Positions 1 to 45,188 of a stretch of DNA of 52,601 nt are shown here, one piece after another. The stretch's first letter is position 1. Each line of letters begins with the position of its first letter. Origin of the DNA: a phage; the NCBI GenBank assembly GCA_026686805.1, contig GCA_026686805.1_3949.1, one strand, 5' to 3'. Made by a program: the position numbers and the translations under genes. Under the pieces are notes generated by a model that saw only the letters and a list, made by a program, of their open reading frames with translations, made no database searches and was not told where the DNA came from.

Positions 1-58
1 CCAAAAACTTTATAGTTTATCTCAAGCAATAATGCTTTCCTAAACTGGAGATTCAAAA

Positions 59-589
59 ATGAACAAGTTCAAAGCTATCAACTACATTCGCTCAAATAGT
101 GTCATGTCTAAGCCTGTTAAGGATACCTACGAATTTCGTTGCAATGGTGAACACTTTGCTACCATCACCAAATCAAACAACGGGGCTTATTATATCCATC
201 GTCGTAATGTTTCTACGGTTGTAGTTTCTAACTTTATGCAAGCTGTAGCGGAACTCCTCCCGCTCTTCTTAGAAAAGTATGCCGTACAGTGTGAAAGTGT
301 TCGTGAATGCACTAAAACAGTGTTAAACGGTTATCGTATGGCTTATGAGCGCTCTTTAAAGAATCTCAATAAATACTACAAAGCACCGGAAGGTACTTCA
401 TCCACAGCCTACGGGGTAGGGGGCTTCAATGTCAGCCTTTACGAAGTGGAAGAAATCGAGCTTTATGACCATCGCCCAAATGGTTACGCTAAGACACTGG
501 GAGATGGGTTAATGCTGAATATCAAGAACTTAGAAAAAACTTTAAGAGAAATTGAAAAAGATATTGACGAGACAATCAAAAGTCTGTAA
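59..589 (+). CDS. hypothetical protein (176 aa)
   Basis: ORF from track; ATG preceded by conserved motif ctaaactggagattcaaaaATG with GGAG Shine-Dalgarno. Confidence 0.6.
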   Translation: MNKFKAINYIRSNSVMSKPVKDTYEFRCNGEHFATITKSNNGAYYIHRRNVSTVVVSNFMQAVAELLPLFLEKYAVQCESVRECTKTVLNGYRMAYERSLKNLNKYYKAPEGTSSTAYGVGGFNVSLYEVEEIELYDHRPNGYAKTLGDGLMLNIKNLEKTLREIEKDIDETIKSL

Positions 590-650
590 ATTGTCAATCA
601 ACGGGGGATAACCTCCCCCACTAAATAAAATCCTAAACTGGAGATTCAAA

Positions 651-914
651 ATGGAACACGTCGAATTGACCACACTTTTACAAATTGCAACCGACAAAGA
701 GGATGTAGCACTATTCCACCGTATTGAAAGTGATTTGTTCAATGGTGAAATCATCAAAGAGTCTTACGAAGTTGTCGGATTCAAAGATGGTAAAACATTT
801 GGATTCTTTGACCTCGACAAAGGCAACGCCGTTACAAAATATGATGTTTTATCTTGTGAGATTCTGACAAAATACAACGAAAAAAGGCTTGCAACATACG
901 CCAACATGCAGTAA
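651..914 (+). CDS. hypothetical protein (87 aa)
   Basis: ORF from track; same conserved upstream cassette (hairpin + ctaaactggagattcaaaATG). Confidence 0.55.
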   Translation: MEHVELTTLLQIATDKEDVALFHRIESDLFNGEIIKESYEVVGFKDGKTFGFFDLDKGNAVTKYDVLSCEILTKYNEKRLATYANMQ

Positions 915-979
915 ATTACTAATCAACGGGAGGTAATAACCTCCCACTAGATAAAAACCTTAAACTAGGAGATTCTAAA

Positions 980-1228
980 ATGGCTACTATCCGCGCTACT
1001 GTTAATGCTTATGGCTGCTACACTCTGGACGTTAAATTTGATATTGGTGGAACTGATGAATGCTTTTCATTAGTGAAGACAGTTATCAAGCAAGTTATCC
1101 CAGATTATAACCCTACTGATGACTTCTGGAAAGACGCTGTAAAAGAGGCATTAAACGACGAGCATCACTATCATTATTGGGGTGATTTGATTGTCTCCCT
1201 GTACTACAGCAAACAAGGTTACAACTAA
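980..1228 (+). CDS. hypothetical protein (82 aa)
   Basis: ORF from track; same conserved upstream cassette (ctaaactaggagattctaaaATG). Confidence 0.55.
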   Translation: MATIRATVNAYGCYTLDVKFDIGGTDECFSLVKTVIKQVIPDYNPTDDFWKDAVKEALNDEHHYHYWGDLIVSLYYSKQGYN

Positions 1229-1266
1229 TCGACGCAGCGGGGCTAAATAGCCCCAGATACCTTTAC

Positions 1267-1317
1267 AGCCCCTTTCTCATATGGATTCGATAGAATCTAT
1301 CTCATAGGGGCTTTTTT
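1267..1317 (+). terminator. putative intrinsic terminator after rightward early genes
   Basis: stem agcccct(1267-1273)/aggggct(1306-1312) followed by T6; the large loop contains a palindromic 20-mer; a shorter hairpin ggggctaaatagcccc lies just upstream. Confidence 0.35.
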
Positions 1318-1739
1318 ACGTCTATGTAATAGCCCCTATACAATCCTTTCCCTTCCCTTTCCAGAATCTATCCCACTGATTCGATAGAATCTATCTCGTA
1401 CCTTAAAAAGCAATAACTCTATAGGTTATTCTATAGCCCCTTATCAAATCAACTTAAATAAAGCCAATAACCCCAGAAAGGGGATTGCCCATTAAAACGC
1501 TCTATAAAGCTCTATAACAGCCTTATCAACCTAACTTAAGCAATCATATTAACCCACTCTAAAAAGCCCTTTATAGAGCTTCCCAGAGCCTTAAAAGAAT
1601 CTTATAAGGGTGAAAGCTTATAGGCTGGCTAGTATCTTGTGAATAACTAAACAATCCCCTTGATAGTCACTAAAAAGCATGTTATAGGGGCTATAAAGTT
1701 ACTTCAAAGTAACGTAAAAAAGGCTATAAAGTTACGTAA

Positions 1740-2720
1740 ATGCTAGCCCCCTTAACATTTTCTTAACAATTTCTTAACAATCCCTACATAGTTATGCTTG
1801 TTAGAGACTTGTTAGCCCCTTGTTAAATCTCTGTTAAGACCACGTAAAAGCCTTGTAAGAGTCTTTGGCATAGCCTTAAAAGCTCCTGTAAAGCCCTATA
1901 AAGAGCTATCCATACAGTTGAGGGGTAAATACTAGGAAGAGACTTAAAAGAGCTTATAAGGGGCTATAGAGAGCTTTTAAGAGGCATGTTTAGAGAATCA
2001 CTAAGAGGGAAAGGGAACGATAAGAAAGAGATAGTGACCATGTTAATAGTTTGTTAAAAAGATTAAACACTTGTTAGAAACTTGTTAATTATCTTTACAA
2101 AATAACTCTTTAAAATTAACTTGTTAGCTCTTGTTAGTCATCTGTTAAGACTCTGTAAAACCTATGTATCAACTGTTAAGAAACTGTTACACCCTTGTTA
2201 GTTCTGTTAAGAATCTATTAAGACCTCTGAAGAGATGTTAAGAGGATGTGAGAACTGTTAAGAGATTGTTAAGGATATTTTAAAATTTTGCAAAGTACTT
2301 GTAAGGGAGCTGTTAAGGGCTACCAAGCAGATATACATCTTCTACAGATATTTTTCAGTTCCTTCAAAGACCCTAAAAAATGACTTGATAGTCCTATTTT
2401 ATAAAAATTTTAAGATTCTGAATAATTACCTATACAGTCTTTTAAAAATACAGGTAGAAACAGGCTTATAAGATACCTTGTTAGTACCGTGTTAGACCTT
2501 GTGAGATAAGGTCTGTGAAGATATTCCTGTTAAGTTTGTTAAAACAGTCTATATAGAGGCTTAGTAATACCTAGTGAACACCTATAGAGGGTAACATAGC
2601 TAACATAGAGATTAAGAGGTGTATAGGAGCTTCTAAGAAGGTGTAGAGAGATGGTTAAGGTGATTGTATAGGTTGTTAAGAAGGCTTGTTAGAAGAGTGT
2701 TTAGATGGCTATTTAGAAGG
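1740..2720. repeat. array of short degenerate repeats (YTTGTTAR / CTGTTAAG / TTGTTAAG) in ~10-12 bp phase, non-coding
   Basis: seen directly, e.g. copies starting 1797,1808,1819,1831 and 2120,2130,2142,2173,2184,2195,2205,2215; no ORF of 60 aa or more in the region. Confidence 0.6.
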
Positions 2721-2880
2721 GCTATACAGAGGGCTATTAAGACCACTAGATAGATACTAAGATACTATATAGTACTATATAACTATATAGAGAGTAAGAT
2801 TAAGAAGGTTGTTAAGAAGGATAGATATTTTATTCACATATGATGGTGACCCAGAGGTTGGGACAACCGATAAAATTTTA

Positions 2881-2911
2881 TAAAAATTAAAAAGCCCCCG
2901 ATTAAGGAGGC
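2881..2911 (-). terminator. putative intrinsic terminator ending the leftward gene block
   Basis: imperfect hairpin gccccc/ggaggc followed on the minus strand by a T-rich run (A-run 2881-2893 on plus). Confidence 0.3.
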
Positions 2912-2923
2912 TCTTAAGATATT

Positions 2924-3472
2924 TTAAATCAGTGTTTCCAGAACTGTTTTTAGGGATGACTTAGTTGTCTGATAAAAATGAGTGAATCCATTGTTGTTAT
3001 CGAATATCTGCATCATGATATCATCTCCCTTGATTGGGTACACTCGGATATCATAGTGAAAACCATTAAAGACACAAGAACCACTACAGAATGAACTAAA
3101 ATCGTCTACTGAGATGTACTCTTCATGTCCTGTGATTTTTATACAAATACCTTTACTCGGTCTCTTAGGGTTGATATCTTCCATCACAGACATACTCTGT
3201 CCACCAAGAGATACCATAGTGACCACTTTACGGTTCTTCTGTCTAAAGTACATCTTAACTTTCTGCAAAGTGTCTTCATAGAACGGATAAGACCTTTCTA
3301 CAAAGATTCCTTCAAGTGGCTCTTTACCATTTTCAACTTCTCTGTTATGCCGTACTGCAAAGATAATTTGTTCGAACCAGTCAAGATTTTCTTCGGAGAG
3401 TGCTTCCCGAATATCACCCCAATCAAGGACTAGGTAGTTACCTTCAACATCTTTTAAGTTATCTTTTTCCAT
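2924..3472 (-). CDS. hypothetical protein
   Basis: track ORF 2924..3517 begins with TTG and overlaps the upstream gene; internal ATG at 3472 has a GGTGTGA RBS-like sequence and removes the overlap, so the start is uncertain. Confidence 0.45.
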   Translation of the reverse strand: MEKDNLKDVEGNYLVLDWGDIREALSEENLDWFEQIIFAVRHNREVENGKEPLEGIFVERSYPFYEDTLQKVKMYFRQKNRKVVTMVSLGGQSMSVMEDINPKRPSKGICIKITGHEEYISVDDFSSFCSGSCVFNGFHYDIRVYPIKGDDIMMQIFDNNNGFTHFYQTTKSSLKTVLETLI

Positions 3473-3485
3473 AGCTATCACACCA

Positions 3486-3950
3486 TTATCGTAAAACTTG
3501 GTAAGCTGGAACTGCAAACTTGTTGCCGTTGTTCTTAATGAGGTCTTCTTCTGTTACTAAGAATGTAATCCCACACAAGTGTGTGTATTGGCTATCATAC
3601 TCAAATATTTTAAGTAAGTATTTACCATTGTGATAAACAGATTCTACTACACCTTTTGCAACAATCTTTCCAGTCTTGAAATCTTTAAGAGGGTATACAT
3701 TACCAACTTTAGGGACTGTTTTCATCTCAGGTTCTTTTAGTTTCTCACTAACTTCTACATCACCTAGTAAGTGAGAACTCTCAAACGCTACATATTGCAT
3801 ATAAGCTTCTGAGCATTCCCAGATAAAACAATGTACAAGAATCTTAGCAGCATGTCTTGAGCAATTCAACTTATCACAAATTTCTTTGTACATTTCATCT
3901 TTAGTTGAGTTGTCAAGCATTGCTTTTCGAACTGTTTCTTTAATTTTCAT
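3486..3950 (-). CDS. hypothetical protein (154 aa)
   Basis: ORF from track, tightly packed in leftward operon. Confidence 0.5.
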   Translation of the reverse strand: MKIKETVRKAMLDNSTKDEMYKEICDKLNCSRHAAKILVHCFIWECSEAYMQYVAFESSHLLGDVEVSEKLKEPEMKTVPKVGNVYPLKDFKTGKIVAKGVVESVYHNGKYLLKIFEYDSQYTHLCGITFLVTEEDLIKNNGNKFAVPAYQVLR

Positions 3951-4362
3951 AAGCTCTCCGAATAACTCTATTAAACATCTCTAAAGTCAGCTTTCCAGAT
4001 TCTAAATGTGGCATAACAAGCTTTAAAGCTTTTTCAACATCATGCACAATATCAATTATACCTTCTTCATAGGCTTCTACGAGGATATCTTTTACACTGA
4101 TATAGCCTTCATTGATAATGATTTGCATATCAAAATCTTCTGATTGCTTGTTTAACTTACCTCTCCAATACCCATCAGCATTAAAAGATATCACTTCACA
4201 CTCTTTAAAATCCATATCATCTGCATGGAATGGAGTAATTATTGTGCATTGGATTGGGTACTCTACACCAGTGGTGTCAACATCAAAGACCTTCACAGAA
4301 GTAAGTGGTTTCTTTGTTTTAGAGCAGTAAACTGTCAATCTTTTACCAATAAGCTCTTTCAT
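3940..4362 (-). CDS. hypothetical protein (140 aa)
   Basis: ORF from track. Confidence 0.5.
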   Translation of the reverse strand: MKELIGKRLTVYCSKTKKPLTSVKVFDVDTTGVEYPIQCTIITPFHADDMDFKECEVISFNADGYWRGKLNKQSEDFDMQIIINEGYISVKDILVEAYEEGIIDIVHDVEKALKLVMPHLESGKLTLEMFNRVIRRAYEN

Positions 4363-4414
4363 TTCGCTACCTTCTAAGTTTCTACAAAGGGGCTATCAAG
4401 TAACCCCTAAGTTA

Positions 4415-5566: not shown

Positions 5567-6098
5567 TCAATAGTGCGATAAATTCGTCGCCTTTACCTTT
5601 CCACGGGCTGAATGAAGGGATATGCTCACGAATAGCCTCAATAACCGTCTTAAGTGCTGTATTTTTCATCCACCAATCAGAATCTGCTGATGCCACTACG
5701 TAGTATCCACCTTCATCAGTCAGAATTGGCTCTGAGATACATGGAGAAATCAAAGTTGTGACGATTGAACCATTGTTCATGTAGTATGTACGCTTAATAA
5801 CCTTTTCAAGAAGCTTGTGAAGGTCACCGAACAGTGTTACAAGTTCTTTGTGGTCAATGTCTTTTTCGAGGCTTGCTCGATACTTCAATAGTGCAGCATC
5901 AACCTCTCTGTCATTGAATTTGAAGTACTGGACTTCATCAACAAGGCAAACACTGATATTGTTGACATTCATAGTCAACTTACAGACTTTTGCAGGAGAA
6001 TTGATACTTGGTTGAAAAAGTGCAACACAACCTTCAATGTTCCCAAAATGTTGGACTAGTGTTACTTGTGGGGTAATATTCTGTTGCTCTTCGGACAT
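5517..6098 (-). CDS. hypothetical protein (193 aa)
   Basis: ORF from track. Confidence 0.5.
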   Translation of the reverse strand: MSEEQQNITPQVTLVQHFGNIEGCVALFQPSINSPAKVCKLTMNVNNISVCLVDEVQYFKFNDREVDAALLKYRASLEKDIDHKELVTLFGDLHKLLEKVIKRTYYMNNGSIVTTLISPCISEPILTDEGGYYVVASADSDWWMKNTALKTVIEAIREHIPSFSPWKGKGDEFIALLSEESNKRSALLPKKYS

Positions 6099-8033: not shown

Positions 8034-8917
8034 TATGCCTCCCCTGCTGGATTAACTGTAACTGTTGCTGCATTAGATGTTACAGAGCCACCTGCGCCAG
8101 TAACTACACAGGTGTAGCTTCCTGAATCAGCAGCGGTTGCTCCTTCTTTGGTGTAGGTTGCAGTAGTTGCATCGAGGATGTCTTCCTCATCTTTCTTCCA
8201 CTGATAACCTGTTGCACCTGTTGCCACAACATTCAACGTTAAGGTCTCACCTTCATTGATTTCTTGATTGGTTGGCTGTTGAGTGATGACAGGTAGTGCG
8301 TTCACAGTCACTGTTGCTGCATCTGAGGTAACACTTGTTCCACCCTCTCCAGATACAACACAAGTGTATGAACCAGCGTCAGAAGGTGCTACTGACTGTT
8401 TTGTGTAAGTTGCAGAATTGGCACTAGGGATGTCCTCACCATCCTTTTTCCATTGATATCCAGTGGCATTAGTTGCAATAACGCTTAGGGTAAGTGTACC
8501 CCCTTCATTTACTGTTTGATTGGTTGGTTGCTGAGTGATTGATGGTGGTGTGATGACATCTTTCAACTTAGCATTCAACATTGAGAACGGCTTAACTCTT
8601 GCCAACCATTCACAGTAAATTGTGTCAACATCTTTACCATTGATGATTGCATACTGCAAATCCATGAAGAAATCAGCAGTTCTCATCTGTGCACCAACAC
8701 TGTAAAGCAATTCATCACTAAATGGAACTTTGTAGTCTGGTTTGTAGTCAAACTTCTCAACTTCTGCAATATCAGCTTCAGGCCAATATGAACTATAGGT
8801 AAGTGGTAAAATAGCCTCTTGATATGTTCTAAAATCATATCTCTTACCAGCCTTTACGTTTGCAATGAAGCCCTTCACAAACTCTTTAAAGTCTGGGTAA
8901 GTCTTTGCTTTAATCAT
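8033..8917 (-). CDS. protein with N-terminal domain paralogous to the adjacent gene plus two tandem Ig-like domains
   Basis: two ~85-aa repeats (..PSITQQPTNQTVNEGGTLTLSV.ATNATGYQWKKDGEDI...SYTCVVSGEGG..VTSDAATVTVN) typical of Ig/I-set-like folds; N-terminus aligns with ORF 8914..9285. Confidence 0.6.
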   Translation of the reverse strand: MIKAKTYPDFKEFVKGFIANVKAGKRYDFRTYQEAILPLTYSSYWPEADIAEVEKFDYKPDYKVPFSDELLYSVGAQMRTADFFMDLQYAIINGKDVDTIYCEWLARVKPFSMLNAKLKDVITPPSITQQPTNQTVNEGGTLTLSVIATNATGYQWKKDGEDIPSANSATYTKQSVAPSDAGSYTCVVSGEGGTSVTSDAATVTVNALPVITQQPTNQEINEGETLTLNVVATGATGYQWKKDEEDILDATTATYTKEGATAADSGSYTCVVTGAGGSVTSNAATVTVNPAGEA

Positions 8918-10416: not shown

Positions 10417-10542
10417 AGGCTTATAAATACTTAGAAGATTACTTAAAAGGTTCCTCTAAAAAGGCTATTTAAACAGATATCTTTCTGGATATCTATCTTT
10501 TATCTTAAAAGCCTTTTAAGAGGTCTTATAAGAGGCATACCA

Positions 10543-10914
10543 ATGAAAAACAGAACAAACAAAGGCCAGTTTAAAAAAGGCCAATCTGGAAACCCATCTG
10601 GAAGACCAAAAGGCTCTCGCAACAAAAGCTCACTTGTAAAAGCTCAACTGACCATTGACAATTCTGCTGAGTTTGCTGCAAAGTTATTTGAAGCGATTGT
10701 TACAAGGGATGCTGCTAAGCTTGCAGAGTTCGGGTTAAACACAGATGACGTAACCATCAAGAGTATGATTGAGGTCGGTAAAACTATCTTTACTCACTCA
10801 GCAGGTGAGATGAAAGCACTTGCAGCAGACACTAAGAAGACTCCTGATAATGGTGGTCAACAACAGACAGATAACAAACCAACGTTCTCTGCTGTAGCGA
10901 CTCTTAAAAAATAA
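10543..10914 (+). CDS. hypothetical protein with basic N-terminal GNPSGRPKG (AT-hook-like) motif
   Basis: ORF with AAGAGG RBS; motif KGQSGNPSGRPKGSRNK suggests nucleic-acid binding (inference). Confidence 0.55.
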   Translation: MKNRTNKGQFKKGQSGNPSGRPKGSRNKSSLVKAQLTIDNSAEFAAKLFEAIVTRDAAKLAEFGLNTDDVTIKSMIEVGKTIFTHSAGEMKALAADTKKTPDNGGQQQTDNKPTFSAVATLKK

Positions 10915-10995: not shown

Positions 10996-12411
10996 ATGAG
11001 CGAATTATTTAAACATGCGCACCTTCATGCAGGTCGAACTGAAAATGGTGCTGTAAACCATACTTCATCAATGTCTGCTCTTGTAGACTTTTACAAAGCT
11101 GCTGGTTCAAGCCGTAGCAACGTAGAAATCTTACCAGACCTGTTCTACAAAGCTTTGCGTGAGGATGTTGATGTTGTAGTTCGTATTTTGCTTCATATGC
11201 GAGATGTACGAGAAGGTATGGGTGAGCGTAAAGCCTTCAGAACTGTTTTACTTCAAGCGATTGAAGACAAAGTTTTAGAGCCTACGCAGGTTCTTCGCAT
11301 TATGGATAAGATTGCAGAACTTGGTCGTTTTGATGACTTCAAAATCTTCGTAGGTACTCGTTTCGAGACAGATGCCTTCAAACATCTAGAAGCAGCATTA
11401 CTAGACCCTGCAACAGCAGGTTTGGCGGCTAAGTGGTTACCACGAGTCAAACCACGTCATAAGCAGTTTGTAAAACGTTTCTGCAAGTTTGCCAACTTGA
11501 GTGAGAAAGAGTACCGCACACTGTTGTCTGCACTATCTGATACAGTTGAGCAAAAAATCTCTGCTAATGAGTTTGGTAAGATTGACTACAGTAAGATTCC
11601 TTCACTTGCTGCTGCACGTTACCAAAAACTGTTTAACCGCAAAGATGGAGAACGCTACAAAGCTTACATCGAGTCCTTATCAAAGGGTGAGGCTAAGATT
11701 AATGCTGGTGCTGTTTACCCATACGATGTAATTAAATCTGTTAAGCATGGTAATGCAGATGTTGCTAATGAGCAGTGGAAAGCACTACCAAACTGGATGG
11801 CAGAGGGTGAAAACATCTTGTGTATGTCTGATGTTTCAAGCTCAATGTCTTGGGTGAATTTTGGTTCAATTACTGCTCTTGATATTGGTGTTTCACTTGC
11901 ATTGTATGTAGCAGAACGTAATACAGGTTGCTTTAAGAATGAGTTGATGGTTTATTCAACAAACCCTCACTTCATCGAACTGAGTGGTGATTTACGAAAC
12001 CGTCATCGTCAGGTGATGCGACACGTTGAATATGGCTCAACTAACTTACAAGCAGCTTTTGACCGTATTCTTGAAACAGGTAAAAGAAACAACTTGACTC
12101 AGAAAGATATGCCAAGTAAGCTTATCATCTTCTCCGATATGGAGTTCAATCAGGTTGATGGAGCTAACGGTCGTACAAACTTTGAAGCAATTCGTAGTAA
12201 GTACAAAAAAGCTGGATACGAAATGCCTCAACTGGTATTCTGGTACTTAGCAAACCGTAATGGTACTTGCGAAGTGTCTGTTAAGGATAACGGTGTAGCA
12301 ATGGTATCTGGTTTTTCTCCAGCTACTTTAAAAGCTCTGCTTGGTGGTGAGAAGTTTGACCCAATCAGTGTAATGCTCAAAGCAGTAATGATTGACCGTT
12401 ATATCTGGTAA
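10996..12411 (+). CDS. von Willebrand factor A (vWA) domain protein with MIDAS motif, N-terminal helical domain
   Basis: DxSxS MIDAS-like motif (MSDVSSSMS) followed by hydrophobic strand ...LIIFSDMEFNQ; 471 aa; RBS present. Confidence 0.55.
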   Translation: MSELFKHAHLHAGRTENGAVNHTSSMSALVDFYKAAGSSRSNVEILPDLFYKALREDVDVVVRILLHMRDVREGMGERKAFRTVLLQAIEDKVLEPTQVLRIMDKIAELGRFDDFKIFVGTRFETDAFKHLEAALLDPATAGLAAKWLPRVKPRHKQFVKRFCKFANLSEKEYRTLLSALSDTVEQKISANEFGKIDYSKIPSLAAARYQKLFNRKDGERYKAYIESLSKGEAKINAGAVYPYDVIKSVKHGNADVANEQWKALPNWMAEGENILCMSDVSSSMSWVNFGSITALDIGVSLALYVAERNTGCFKNELMVYSTNPHFIELSGDLRNRHRQVMRHVEYGSTNLQAAFDRILETGKRNNLTQKDMPSKLIIFSDMEFNQVDGANGRTNFEAIRSKYKKAGYEMPQLVFWYLANRNGTCEVSVKDNGVAMVSGFSPATLKALLGGEKFDPISVMLKAVMIDRYIW

Positions 12412-13831: not shown

Positions 13832-14326
13832 GTGATACTTATGATTTGTGCTAACAAAGATTGCGGAAATGAAGCCGTTAAAGGTGGAAAATTTTGCTCA
13901 CGCTCTTGTTCTGCAAAAGTGAACAACAAGAAACACCCAAAGAGAAGTCAGGAAGGCTCTTGCCATTCATGCGGAAAGGTAACGCCAAAAGCAAGAAAAT
14001 ACTGTGACGAATGTATTTCAGGTGGAGTCATGAAAAAACATAAGACCCATCATGAAAAAAGCAAAGCTAAATCACTGCACGTTAAAAAGTCTCGTGATAG
14101 ACTGAAGAAGGCTTTAGTTGATTACAAGGGTGGTTGTTGTTCAATTTGTGGTTACAATAGGTGCATAAAGGCTCTAGAGTTTCACCACTTAGACCCTAAC
14201 ACAAAAGACTTCACAGTAGGTCAAAAACACTACTCACTGGCTACAATGCAGTCTGAAGTTGATAAGTGTGTCTTGCTTTGTGCAAATTGCCATAGAGAAG
14301 TACACGAAGGGGTAACAATGCTGTGA
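13832..14326 (+). CDS. HNH homing endonuclease (Cys-rich N-terminus, C-terminal HNH motif)
   Basis: C-terminal ...CSICGYNRC...LEFHHLDPNTKDF...CVLLCANCHREVHEG = HNH signature; embedded in tRNA array; stop codon overlaps start of tRNA-Ile. Confidence 0.75.
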   Translation: MILMICANKDCGNEAVKGGKFCSRSCSAKVNNKKHPKRSQEGSCHSCGKVTPKARKYCDECISGGVMKKHKTHHEKSKAKSLHVKKSRDRLKKALVDYKGGCCSICGYNRCIKALEFHHLDPNTKDFTVGQKHYSLATMQSEVDKCVLLCANCHREVHEGVTML

Positions 14327-15052: not shown

Positions 15053-15310
15053 CCTAATAAGATTTTAAAGCCAAGCTTCATTCGGATGTTGCTTTGGTAT
15101 CCCTCGTGTATTGTCGTACACACTGATAAAACACCTAGTAGGTGTCACGGAGAAGAGATAATATCAAGCTCTCCAAAGGTTCTAGTCACCGGATTAAACA
15201 AGACTATGCAAAGACCTTTTTAGGTCTTTTTAGAGGGCTTCTAAGGTTATTACGGCTTGTTGTGGAACCTTGTTGCTTAGGTTCTTAGAAGTTCTCTAAA
15301 AAGATTTAAT

Positions 15311-18516: not shown

Positions 18517-18537
18517 TTCTATTTGCGGAGGTGCTTA

Positions 18538-20139
18538 ATGGACTTAAATGCTGTTAAGCAGAAGCGAGTGGAAGATGTTAGGAAAGTCCTAGCTGGAGAG
18601 TTGGGGCTTTCTGATGAAGTAAAAGAAATTATCAAATCATTCGGTAAAGACCCCTCTAAATTCCTTCCAACTCAAATTCTGACTTTATTAAGATACACAC
18701 CAGACCAAGTTAGACTTATCTTCAAATTGATGACTGATAAGAATTATGTAGCCCCTCAGCCGGGTTCTCAAGAGGTCTTTTTAAATACTAATGCTGACTT
18801 GGTTCTCTATGGTGGTGCTGCTGGTGCTGGTAAAACTGCTGCATTGTTAATGGATTCTTTAAGGTTTATTGAAGACCCTAACTATAATGCTGTATATTTC
18901 CGTCGAAATACAACACAGCTACAAGGTGGTTTATGGCCTGCTGCAAAGAAACTATTTGGTAAGTTTGGTGGGGTTCCTCACGAGCAGAAGATGACTATCA
19001 CATTCCCTTCTGGGGCAACTATCAAGTTTACCTATCTAGAACTTGAAAAGCACGCTGAAGGTCATCAGGGTATTGAATACTCAGCTATTTACTTTGACGA
19101 AGGTACACACTTCTCTGCTTCACAGATTTCATACCTACAAACACGTCTGCGTTCTGGTGCTGAAGGTGATTCATACATGAAGATTTCCATGAACCCAGAC
19201 AGAGACCACTTTATTTATGATTGGGTAGAACCATTCTTAGATGAAGAAGGTTATCCAGACCCTGAAAAGTGTGGTCGTATTCGTTGGTATGTAATGAATG
19301 ACGGTGTGATGGTTTCTGATTGGGAGAGAGACAAGATTCTTGAAATGTTCCCTCTTGAGATTCCTCAAACATACACCTTTATCTCTGGTACGATTGATGA
19401 TAACCCAATCCTTGACTTCTTAGAGCCTAAGTACCGTGGTAAGTTGGAAAACAACACCCCTGTAAACGTTGCAAGACTTCGTTTCGGTAACTGGAAGGCT
19501 CGTGCAGAAGGTTCAAACTATTGGCAAAGACAATGGTGTGAAATTGTTGATTCACTCCCAGAAGATGTATTCGATGTTAGAGCATGGGACTTAGCAGCAA
19601 CTTTACCATCTGAGATTAACCCTAATCCAGACTGGACAGCAGGTGTTAAGATGGGTAAATCTAAAAAAGACGGTTGCTATTATATCATTGATGTAGTAAG
19701 ATTTAGAGATAGACCCTCTGGAGTCGAAACACAAATTAATTTGACTGCTGAAAGTGACGGTAAGCGAACTGGTATTTTTATCCCTCAAGACCCAGGCGCT
19801 GCTGGTAAATCCTACGCGACATCCCTCATCAGGAAACTTGCCGAGAAAGGCTATCGTGCAAGAGCTAAACCAACAAATAAAGATAAAGTTACCCGCTTTG
19901 CGGGATTTTCTGCTGCTTCTGAAGCTGGACTTGTAAAAGTCTTAAGAGGTAGTTGGAATGAAGCTTACTTTCAAGAGCTTGAAGGCTTTTGTGGTGATGG
20001 CAAAACTAAAGATGACCAAGTGGATGCTACCAGTGATGCTTTCAACAGTCTTAACGAAGTTAAATTATTCAAGCCACCATCAATGGGTGCTCACACAGAC
20101 TTAGTGAGAGGAAACCCATATGAGGGGCTTAGACGTTGA
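18538..20139 (+). CDS. terL: terminase large subunit
   Basis: Walker A P-loop LYGGAAGAGKTAALL near N-terminus; ~530 aa; directly upstream of portal-sized gene; start moved to ATG 18538 (GGAGG RBS) from track ATG 18523. Confidence 0.8.
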   Translation: MDLNAVKQKRVEDVRKVLAGELGLSDEVKEIIKSFGKDPSKFLPTQILTLLRYTPDQVRLIFKLMTDKNYVAPQPGSQEVFLNTNADLVLYGGAAGAGKTAALLMDSLRFIEDPNYNAVYFRRNTTQLQGGLWPAAKKLFGKFGGVPHEQKMTITFPSGATIKFTYLELEKHAEGHQGIEYSAIYFDEGTHFSASQISYLQTRLRSGAEGDSYMKISMNPDRDHFIYDWVEPFLDEEGYPDPEKCGRIRWYVMNDGVMVSDWERDKILEMFPLEIPQTYTFISGTIDDNPILDFLEPKYRGKLENNTPVNVARLRFGNWKARAEGSNYWQRQWCEIVDSLPEDVFDVRAWDLAATLPSEINPNPDWTAGVKMGKSKKDGCYYIIDVVRFRDRPSGVETQINLTAESDGKRTGIFIPQDPGAAGKSYATSLIRKLAEKGYRARAKPTNKDKVTRFAGFSAASEAGLVKVLRGSWNEAYFQELEGFCGDGKTKDDQVDATSDAFNSLNEVKLFKPPSMGAHTDLVRGNPYEGLRR

Positions 20140-38986: not shown

Positions 38987-38996
38987 TTTCTTTACA

Positions 38997-39018
38997 GGGG
39001 CTATAAAGCCCCTTTTAA
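38997..39018 (+). terminator. hairpin between the two tail fiber genes
   Basis: aggggc-tataaa-gcccct followed by ttttaag (short U tract). Confidence 0.3.
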
Positions 39019-39032
39019 GAGGAAAATTCATA

Positions 39033-44858: not shown

Positions 44859-45188
44859 TTAATCTGCCAACCTTAAATTAAAATTAACACCAAATTTTTC
44901 ACATACTTCCAACATATACTCAAGGGAAACATTCCCAGTGAGGTGGATTATGTTGGATACACGAGCCTGAGAGATACCACAAATTTTAGCAACTTGCTCT
45001 TGAGAAAGACCTCTGGATTTAATCTCTCTCTTAAAACGATGTGCAACGAAGTCTCTCATTTCATCTACATCCATTGGACAAATATAACTCTCCATTTCAG
45101 CCTCTCTATCAGCCTCCCAATCATCTTGTGGGGCATAGGGGTCAAAAACCTCATTCATCTTTCTTCTTCCGTTTGCGTGAAGTGTCAA
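44859..45188 (-). CDS. helix-turn-helix DNA-binding protein
   Basis: C-terminal HTH-like segment RGLSQEQVAKICGISQARVSNI. Confidence 0.5.
   Translation of the reverse strand: MTLHANGRRKMNEVFDPYAPQDDWEADREAEMESYICPMDVDEMRDFVAHRFKREIKSRGLSQEQVAKICGISQARVSNIIHLTGNVSLEYMLEVCEKFGVNFNLRLAD

Follow-up and report, generated by a model that had tools for sequence, protein, structure and literature searches.

Introduction

Short repeats flank the terminase cut in several phages, in an arrangement that allows the DNA to wrap an oligomeric small terminase, as at the R sites of lambda cosB, pacL and pacR of SPP1, and the pac hexamers of P1. In Twort-like staphylococcal phages, a short inverted repeat at the boundaries of the direct terminal repeat has been proposed as a terminase signal, and parC of R1 carries tandem direct repeats of ~11 bp on which small dimeric proteins bind cooperatively and form a superhelical filament. 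Here we describe a locus that can be set beside each of these systems: a 1.7-kb island of helically phased short repeats at positions 1229–2923 of a phage contig of 52,601 nt (NCBI GenBank assembly GCA_026686805.1, contig GCA_026686805.1_3949.1; the whole of this stretch is referred to as the window). Its best megablast matches assign the window to Felixounavirus, that is, to the Felix O1-like myoviruses, and comparison with relatives shows that the island contains the physical ends of the genome and a 579-bp direct terminal repeat, which a preliminary description of this DNA had missed.

T7 resembles the island in having a short, exact direct terminal repeat within non-coding DNA, with arrays of 6–8-bp motifs inside the repeat and on both sides of it at steps of about one helical turn (CCTAAAG in T7; CTATAAAG, CTTAAAAG and CTGTTAAG in the island). 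We checked the T7 sequence and found YTAAAG sites in 13-bp steps between 176 and 340 (z=7.9 for the lag-13 autocorrelation), with a weaker array preceding the right repeat. The two loci nevertheless differ in size and step (repeat of 160 bp in T7 vs. 579 bp; ~20 units in 0.5 kb vs. ~60 in 1.7 kb; 12–13-bp steps vs. 11-bp steps with a 10.4-bp long-range phase), the arrays of the island change orientation, and its phage is a myovirus with a T4-type terminase and without a phage RNA polymerase. The core of the T7 heptamer, CTAAAG, is modestly over-represented in the T7 coding core (25 observed vs. 10.9 expected). Because motif, period and scale differ, the T7 arrays are an analogue of the island and not a homologue.

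The remaining systems depart further in other respects. Sites of the cosB and pac kind measure 100–250 bp and serve cos or headful packaging, whereas the island extends over 1.7 kb around an exact terminal repeat, and its small terminase is only a candidate; the repeats of Twort-like phages are several kb long and contain genes, unlike the island; and, compared with ParR/parC and with iteron plasmids, the island has far more units, these coincide with genome ends, and there is no adjacent partition or initiator gene. The phi29 protein p6 occupies 12 bp per monomer (11 bp in GA-1), contacts the minor groove on one face, binds preferentially at the two genome ends and coats the genome throughout (PMC10899789). 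The island and its genome likewise carry an 11–12-bp phased signal, which runs through the whole genome and reaches its highest density at the ends, but phi29 has terminal-protein ends and no terminal repeat, p6 reads bendability and not a defined frame, and binding in the present phage is a prediction.

For the genus itself a terminal repeat of ~600 bp is already published, and the literature that we could reach reports only its existence; the original paper on Felix O1 went no further than inferring 'short terminal repeats' and left the region undescribed (PMC3185647), and the PhageMaP paper on Bas63 does not address the intergenic island. In the literature searched we found no description of the 1.7-kb phased array, of its boundary boxes, of its conservation across four genera or of the genome-wide CT-N4-AG bias reported below.

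Results

Chromosome ends and the direct terminal repeat

Megablast matched the window to 257 records, 197 of which cover at least 80% of the island at 78–93% identity, and the island is non-coding in essentially all matching records. The ends of many relatives' records fall within it. In phage E9, 580 identical bases stand at both record ends, and on alignment the end of the record corresponds to window 38–2324 and its start to window 1746–4096. The annotation of Pr103Blw marks bases 1–581 as a 'short direct terminal repeat', and in NBSal004 the two ends share 694 bases, with boundaries as in E9. All three records open with GCCCCCTTAACATT, which is window position 1746; the E9 and NBSal004 records, as well as the annotated Pr103Blw repeat (1–581), finish in GTTAAGGGCTACC, which is window position 2324; and several further relatives' records open within a few tens of bases of 1746. 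The length of the Pr103Blw repeat, 581 bp, was obtained by PhageTerm (PMC8303462), and in UAB_Phi87 a repeat of 608 bp was established by Bal31 digestion, which revealed two Bal31-sensitive fragments, together with run-off sequencing (PMC4837284). Read by homology to these relatives, the island corresponds to the concatemer junction, at which the physical ends of the Felixounavirus chromosome come together; by the same comparison the assembly holds a collapsed repeat, and 2325–2923 is the unique DNA that follows the repeat at the left end of the virion chromosome. The elements of the junction are as follows.

1746–2324, plus strand: direct terminal repeat of 579 bp, present as one collapsed copy in the assembly; boundaries mapped from the records of relatives.
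1744–1757, unstranded: left boundary, with the virion left end placed at G1746 (..GCTA followed by GCCCCCTTAACA); kept in 7 phages.
2311–2339, unstranded: right boundary, with the virion right end placed at C2324 from the record ends of relatives, and the box AAGCAGATATACATC directly outside it.

The two boundaries form an inverted repeat, in which TAGCCCCCTTAACA (1744–1757) pairs with TGTTAAGGGCTA (2311–2322), and the box AAGCAGATATACATC outside the right boundary occurs once in the window.

As first described, the region 1229–2923 contains no open reading frame (ORF) of 60 aa or more, the longest being 31 and 37 aa. Several deposited Felixounavirus genomes open inside the island, and 'hypothetical proteins' of 30–55 aa have been annotated within it (E9 CDS0001–0004, NBSal004, LMP25/33/34 and Meda); these short ORF calls, made in non-coding repeat DNA, are almost certainly spurious. 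Plus-strand ORFs finish at 1228 and minus-strand ORFs begin, with their 3' ends, at 2924, and to this extent the claim that rightward and leftward transcription converge on the island is correct. The convergence, however, exists only in the circularised assembly, whereas in the virion both blocks are transcribed outward to the ends.

Repeat units, density and helical phase

A repeat unit of ~11 bp, consisting of the palindromic frame CT-N4-AG and a spacer of ~3 nt, tiles the whole 1.7 kb (63 frames, or 37/kb, where base composition predicts ~5). The reported packing with degenerate short motifs is evident in their densities: TGTTAR is found at 25 sites in the island (14.8/kb vs. 1.08/kb across the rest of the window) and YTGTTAR at 13.0/kb vs. 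0.61/kb, and the TGTTAAG/CTTGTTAG subtype is specific to the island. The units are arranged as follows.

1320–1745, minus strand: left arm, C-rich on the plus strand, with reverse units of ~11 bp (CTATAAAG, CTTAAAAG, CTTATAAG); GC skew −0.3.
1751–1781, minus strand: three reverse CTTAACA(A) units in exact 11-bp steps directly inside the left end (Tandem Repeats Finder (TRF): period 11, 2.8 copies, 95% match).
1752, 1763 and 1774, minus strand: YTAACA sites of this reverse trio, kept in Felix O1, Bas63, Moogle and SUSP1.
1797–2317, plus strand: forward arrays of CTTGTTAG / CTGTTAAG units with 18 TGTTAR sites, from motif positions and spacings.
2340–2889, plus strand: right arm, unique, non-coding and G-rich, with forward units of ~11–12 bp (TGTTAR, CTATAGAG, CTATTAAG, purine spacers); GC skew +0.4 to +0.5.

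Units are in reverse orientation up to ~1790 and in forward orientation thereafter, so that the switch stands ~45 bp inside the left end; composition follows the same division, C-rich up to ~1790 and G-rich beyond, and the sign of the GC skew flips at ~1790. Near the left end, three reverse units (1751–1781, the tandem tttcttaacaa copies already pointed out, which TRF recovers at period 11) and four forward units (1797–1839) begin 6 bp inside the end, and arrays reach the right boundary. TRF gives periods of 11–12 and 24 in the right arm, and A/T-rich tracts lie at 2092–2121, 2272–2295 and 2395–2415.

The spacing of 10–12 bp given in the preliminary description was recovered by formal analysis: 23 of the 62 spacings between consecutive CT-N4-AG frames fall in this range (random placement: mean 4.7, maximum 13), the base autocorrelation of the island peaks at lag 11 (z=11.0) with harmonics at 21–22 and 31–33, and 5-mer self-match at lag 11 reaches z=23.4. 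A Fourier transform computed globally over the 1.7 kb, which had been proposed as an alternative check, was only marginal against shuffles because the phase slips between clusters, and it was replaced by the autocorrelation and by a Rayleigh phase test on motif positions. In the Rayleigh test, the 18 TGTTAR sites of the terminal repeat were coherent at 10.40 bp (R=0.76; null 95th percentile 0.58), as were all 25 sites (R=0.67; null 0.49), with long-range coherence between 10.40 and 10.44 bp; the CT-N4-AG frames of the left arm had their best phase at 11.04 bp (R=0.66). Neighbouring copies are thus mostly 11 bp apart, yet over long distances their phase is that of the B-DNA helical repeat, 10.40–10.44 bp. 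Since the TGTTAR sites hold this 10.4-bp phase, they lie on one face of the helix, as had been suggested from spacing by eye.

Conservation across relatives

Compared with Moogle, a Citrobacter phage of another genus, the window has 75% identity in the island and 58–72% in the five flanking genes. In an alignment of seven phages, conservation is concentrated in the motifs (95% in TGTTAR columns vs. 85% in other columns; 91.5% in CT/AG frame columns vs. 84% in others). Felix O1, Bas63, mio, momo, Moogle and SUSP1 have a common layout, in which the left end is followed by three reverse CTTAACA units in 11-bp steps, four to five forward units, a gap of ~200 bp and then the main array, and in each of these six phages the lag-11 autocorrelation has z = 7–12. 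The boundaries are equally well kept: TAGCCCCCTTAACA at the left is conserved in seven phages of three genera, and at the right the 23 bases GGGCTACC together with AAGCAGATATACATC, which include GGGCTACCAAGCAGATATACATC, are invariant in 7/7 phages (three genera).

Erwinia phage phiEa21-4 (Kolesnikvirus) was undetected by megablast and has a syntenic gap of 1.19 kb, which is also non-coding. There the lag-11 signal persists (z=7.6), TGTTAR is dense (12.6/kb vs. 0.70/kb outside), the left-arm motif is a different one, TTCTAA at 10–12-bp steps, and the right-boundary box is retained as CTAAGCAGATATACAAT. Motif and phase are thus conserved while the sequence drifts, which is what the preliminary description had proposed to look for, and on these alignments the island is shown to be under purifying selection.

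A scan of IMG/VR for TGTTAAG-N4-TGTTAAG returned 120 loci, mostly single chance matches, with dense arrays in Ounavirinae. Four unrelated IMG/VR contigs carry short intergenic TTAACA/TGTTAA arrays in 8–11-bp steps (here L045, at ~5986–6060; L096, ~490–740; L075, ~680–720 and 1170–1200; and L042, ~8700–8880). In L045, 31 nt are 93.5% identical to window 1749–1779, and the L096 arrays are found ~2 kb upstream of a T4-type large terminase. The TTAACA/TGTTAA motif may be a more widespread recognition element.

A genome-wide CT-N4-AG bias

We scanned all 16×16 dinucleotide pairs at gaps of 0–12 (3,328 gapped pairs) in the 49.7 kb outside the island, and CT-N4-AG was the top outlier (475 observed vs. 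243.5 expected, z=14.8). Coding sequence shows an approximately two-fold excess (363 vs. 176 ± 11 in shuffles that preserve protein sequence and codon usage, z=16.4), an independent gene list gives 373 vs. 181, and each 4-kb bin beyond the island is enriched 1.2–2.7-fold. In coding DNA, pairs of sites are most frequent at distances of 11 bp (19 pairs) and 12 bp (27 pairs), where 4.5 would be expected, and are under-represented at 16–20 bp. Two trivial sources of such a bias were considered and rejected: a codon-phase artefact, because the same-phase gaps of 1, 7 and 10 are unenriched and all three codon phases are enriched over synonymous shuffles, and an overall surplus of short inverted repeats, because z lies between −3.1 and 6.7 for the 15 remaining reverse-complementary frames at gap 4. 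CT-N4-AG also ranks first in phiEa21-4 (z=14.4; synonymous-shuffle z=12.7), and the enrichment is absent in T4 (z=−0.9), T7 (−2.5, −2.1) and a 50-kb stretch of E. coli (0.8). A full-text literature search for the motif 'CTNNNNAG' returned primers and nothing relevant.

Terminase recognition alone leaves this genome-wide bias unexplained, which suggests a protein that reads the frame across the genome and nucleates at the terminal arrays. We therefore put forward, tentatively and at odds well short of even, that Ounavirinae carry a genome-wide, helically phased CT-N4-AG code read by a putative phage protein, with the island as its high-density nucleation centre. If true, this would be a sequence-specific, self-marking chromatin in a lytic phage, comparable to that of phi29 p6, with a defined motif that selection has imposed on every gene.

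Small CT-N4-AG clusters are also seen at intergenic terminator-like hairpins (4371–4400, 15216–15245 and 38990–39019; e.g. GGGGCTATAAAGCCCC). These clusters resemble the 57-bp intergenic repeats reported in Felix O1 (PMC3185647).

A proposed packaging scaffold and its candidate proteins

Three readings of the phased repeats had been offered at the outset, namely an iteron-type origin, an array of protein-binding sites and intrinsically curved DNA. The second fits best: conservation is higher in the motifs than in the spacers, the sites share one face of the helix, and motif and phase persist in a distant genus. We infer that a phased protein-binding scaffold for terminase recognition is the likeliest function, and we give the whole reading, in which the island is the concatemer junction, the phased arrays are the docking scaffold of the terminase and the ends are cut there, a probability of about 0.55. 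The repeated sites adjoin the mapped boundaries of the terminal repeat, as do those of pac and cosB, and the arrangement of three reverse and four forward units near the left end is reminiscent of P1 pac with its 4+3 hexamers. Two genes outside the island enter this reading.

10543–10914, plus strand: DUF5681 protein of 123 aa, candidate small terminase or array binder (Pfam PF18932, E=2e-14).
18523–20139, plus strand: large terminase, T4-type Terminase_6N/6C (Pfam E=9e-43 and 4e-33; PHROG 979).

By analogy with phages that have exact terminal repeats, replication would give concatemers in which the repeat is present once at each junction. An oligomeric phage protein would then assemble on the phased sites along one face of the DNA and mark the junction within the concatemer; the DUF5681 protein is a candidate for this small-terminase role, and the A/T-rich centres of the units would suit its AT-hook-like arm. 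The large terminase, which is of the T4 type and is the nuclease expected to make the cuts at the repeat boundaries, would be positioned at the two inverted-repeat boundary sites (TAGCCCCCTTAACA / TGTTAAGGGCTA) and the invariant box AAGCAGATATACA, where it would nick opposite strands at the two boundaries. Strand-displacement synthesis, as in the T7 model, would duplicate the 579 bp and leave a repeat at both ends of each packaged genome. Boundaries in the form of an inverted repeat are what dyad-symmetric nicking on opposite strands predicts.

The DUF5681 protein is likely, from the position of its gene in distant relatives, to be an unannotated small terminase. In distant relatives its gene lies directly upstream of, and overlaps, the large-terminase gene, which is the usual position of a small terminase. 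An invariant N-terminal arm, KKGQSGNPxGRPKGSxN, is common to 28 homologues, and the best PDB profile match of this arm is a weak one to the AT-hook of HMG-I/Y (E=0.2); a PDB sequence search with the protein found nothing. A CT-N4-AG cluster lies just upstream of the gene (10430–10532), after a TTGACA promoter-like pair. Near the TTAACA arrays of the four unrelated IMG/VR contigs, the fetched stretches hold no DUF5681 gene and so offer no evidence that array and gene co-occur.

Several points weigh against this packaging reading. Felixounavirus SEP1 has been called headful from PhageTerm (PMC13431587), a call that is itself in conflict with the Bal31 data and with the E9, Pr103Blw and NBSal004 records. 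The ends of the present phage are placed by homology to relatives, the small-terminase assignment comes solely from gene position in distant relatives, and the AlphaFold2 (AF2) model of the DUF5681 protein is poor (pLDDT 66, pTM 0.36). The arrays run 500–600 bp past the repeat on each side, far beyond the needs of a cut site; the two-fold CT-N4-AG enrichment in all coding DNA is unexplained by terminase recognition; and in the open papers searched we found no function for the analogous T7 arrays.

Competing explanations

The bias in coding DNA leads to a first rival, an architectural protein. Here the arrays would nucleate an abundant, genome-coating protein comparable to phi29 p6, bound every ~11–12 bp along one groove and spreading from the dense arrays at the ends, and it would organise or protect the DNA and assist replication, transcription switching or packaging. 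That CT-N4-AG is the top outlier genome-wide, is lineage-specific, is raised in every bin and recurs at 11–12-bp site distances speaks for such a coat, as does a periodic signal of 11–12 bp that is strongest at the genome ends and present throughout. We nevertheless regard it as unlikely: no p6 homologue or histone-like protein was seen among the 32 window ORFs scanned, with ~35 kb of genome lying outside the window (the sole DNA-binding domain in Pfam, PHROG and NCBIfam scans of the 32 ORFs is that of an HTH_3 protein at 44859–45188); the TGTTAR subtype is unenriched outside the island, so that two distinct signals may overlap; and enrichment of the four-base frame could stem from a structural code, from modification or from a nicking target. 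An iteron-type origin, as the preliminary description had also envisaged, would have an initiator bind the phased repeats and melt an adjacent A/T-rich stretch, and the ingredients are there in part: phased direct and inverted short repeats, A/T-rich tracts, the change in GC-skew sign at ~1790 and two perfect, inverted DnaA-box matches (TTATTCACA), one in each arm (1638–1646, minus strand; 2830–2838, plus strand); T7 has secondary origins near its ends. We found no positive support for it and consider it distinctly unlikely, as the six flanking ORFs have no Pfam match, belong to PHROGs of unknown function and include no recognisable initiator; Bas63, Moogle and phiEa21-4 lack the DnaA boxes; the island has no IHF consensus; the skew switch reflects motif orientation; ~60 units of 11 bp in two orientations over 1.7 kb contrast with the usual 4–8 iterons of 17–22 bp; and the island's position is exactly that of the mapped genome ends.

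Less probable again is a role in DNA ejection or end protection, in which the dense array would bind a virion or host protein and shield the end from RecBCD or pause entry, with the injection stop region of T5 as the model for a pause. Both terminal blocks point outward, so that no gene is expressed from the first-entering DNA, which is in keeping with this idea; on the other hand, the sequence does not show which end enters first, and no gene for a nuclease inhibitor or an end-binding protein was identified. A purely structural effect of curved or anisotropically flexible DNA, or the production of non-coding RNAs, is the least probable of the explanations considered. Periodic sequence could indeed favour a superhelical path, but an approximate wedge model gives the island no greater bend than the remainder of the window: its mean bend is 18.4 degrees vs. 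16.4–17.9 in the flanks, and its local minima and end-to-end ratios are matched elsewhere in the window, so the curvature suggested earlier is not borne out. For a non-coding RNA, rightward transcription could start from the conserved TTGATA/TTGACA block at 2385; the promoter score of this block is weak, however, the island lies between two terminators, and an Rfam scan (E≤1) returned no family at threshold, the best hit (E=0.29; 24.8 bits vs. a gathering score of 55) falling on a terminator.

Flanking gene blocks and small elements

The two gene blocks on either side of the island are closed by hairpins, and a promoter-like block lies outside the right repeat boundary.

1239–1317, plus strand: two hairpins closing the rightward block, read from the sequence: GGGGCTAAATAGCCCC (1239–1254), and GCCCCT...AGGGGC followed by TTTTTT (1268–1317).
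2890–2915, minus strand: intrinsic terminator of the leftward block, with a 10-bp stem and then a T run, from a terminator scan.
2385–2426, plus strand: conserved TTGATA/TTGACA hexamer followed by an A/T-rich block, from alignment; the scan match, at 2398–2426, is only 9/12.

The hairpin at 1268–1317 was uncalled by the terminator scan because of its long loop. The stems of both hairpins at 1239–1317 are kept in seven phages, some of which have the loop insert while others lack it. A palindrome of 14 bp, GATTCGATAGAATC, has two copies in the window, one in the terminator loop (1284–1297) and one at 1378–1391, with ~10 bp of common flank, and the places at which related copies occur or are missing differ between Felix O1, Moogle and SUSP1; its behaviour is that of a small insertion element prone to indels. 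The TTGATA/TTGACA block stands ~60 bp outside the right repeat boundary and is directed into the G-rich right arm, where it may weakly promote a non-coding transcript. A sigma-70 promoter scan gave ten weak matches vs. 6.3 expected and was uninformative.

Elsewhere in the window, a DUF2828/DUF7788 protein is encoded at 10996–12411 (plus strand) and an HNH endonuclease ORF lies at 13832–14326 (plus strand). The former may be the counterpart of the Ro60-like gp130 of Bas63, which lies directly upstream of tRNA genes (PhageMaP preprint).

Discussion

Phages of the Felix O1 type are workhorses of diagnostics and therapy, and Bas63 is an emerging model, and yet the signals at the ends of their chromosomes are undescribed in the literature searched. 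The present analysis yields boundaries at the level of single bases, a conserved cut-site box, a candidate small terminase and a 1.7-kb cis element, and this element must stay intact in engineering and genome-rebooting work. The part that could prove really new is the genome-wide CT-N4-AG code. If the bias reflects a DNA-binding protein, it would be an unusually clear case of a binding code that a phage has written across its coding sequences and, if true, it would offer a testable route to how lytic phages distinguish their own DNA from that of the host.

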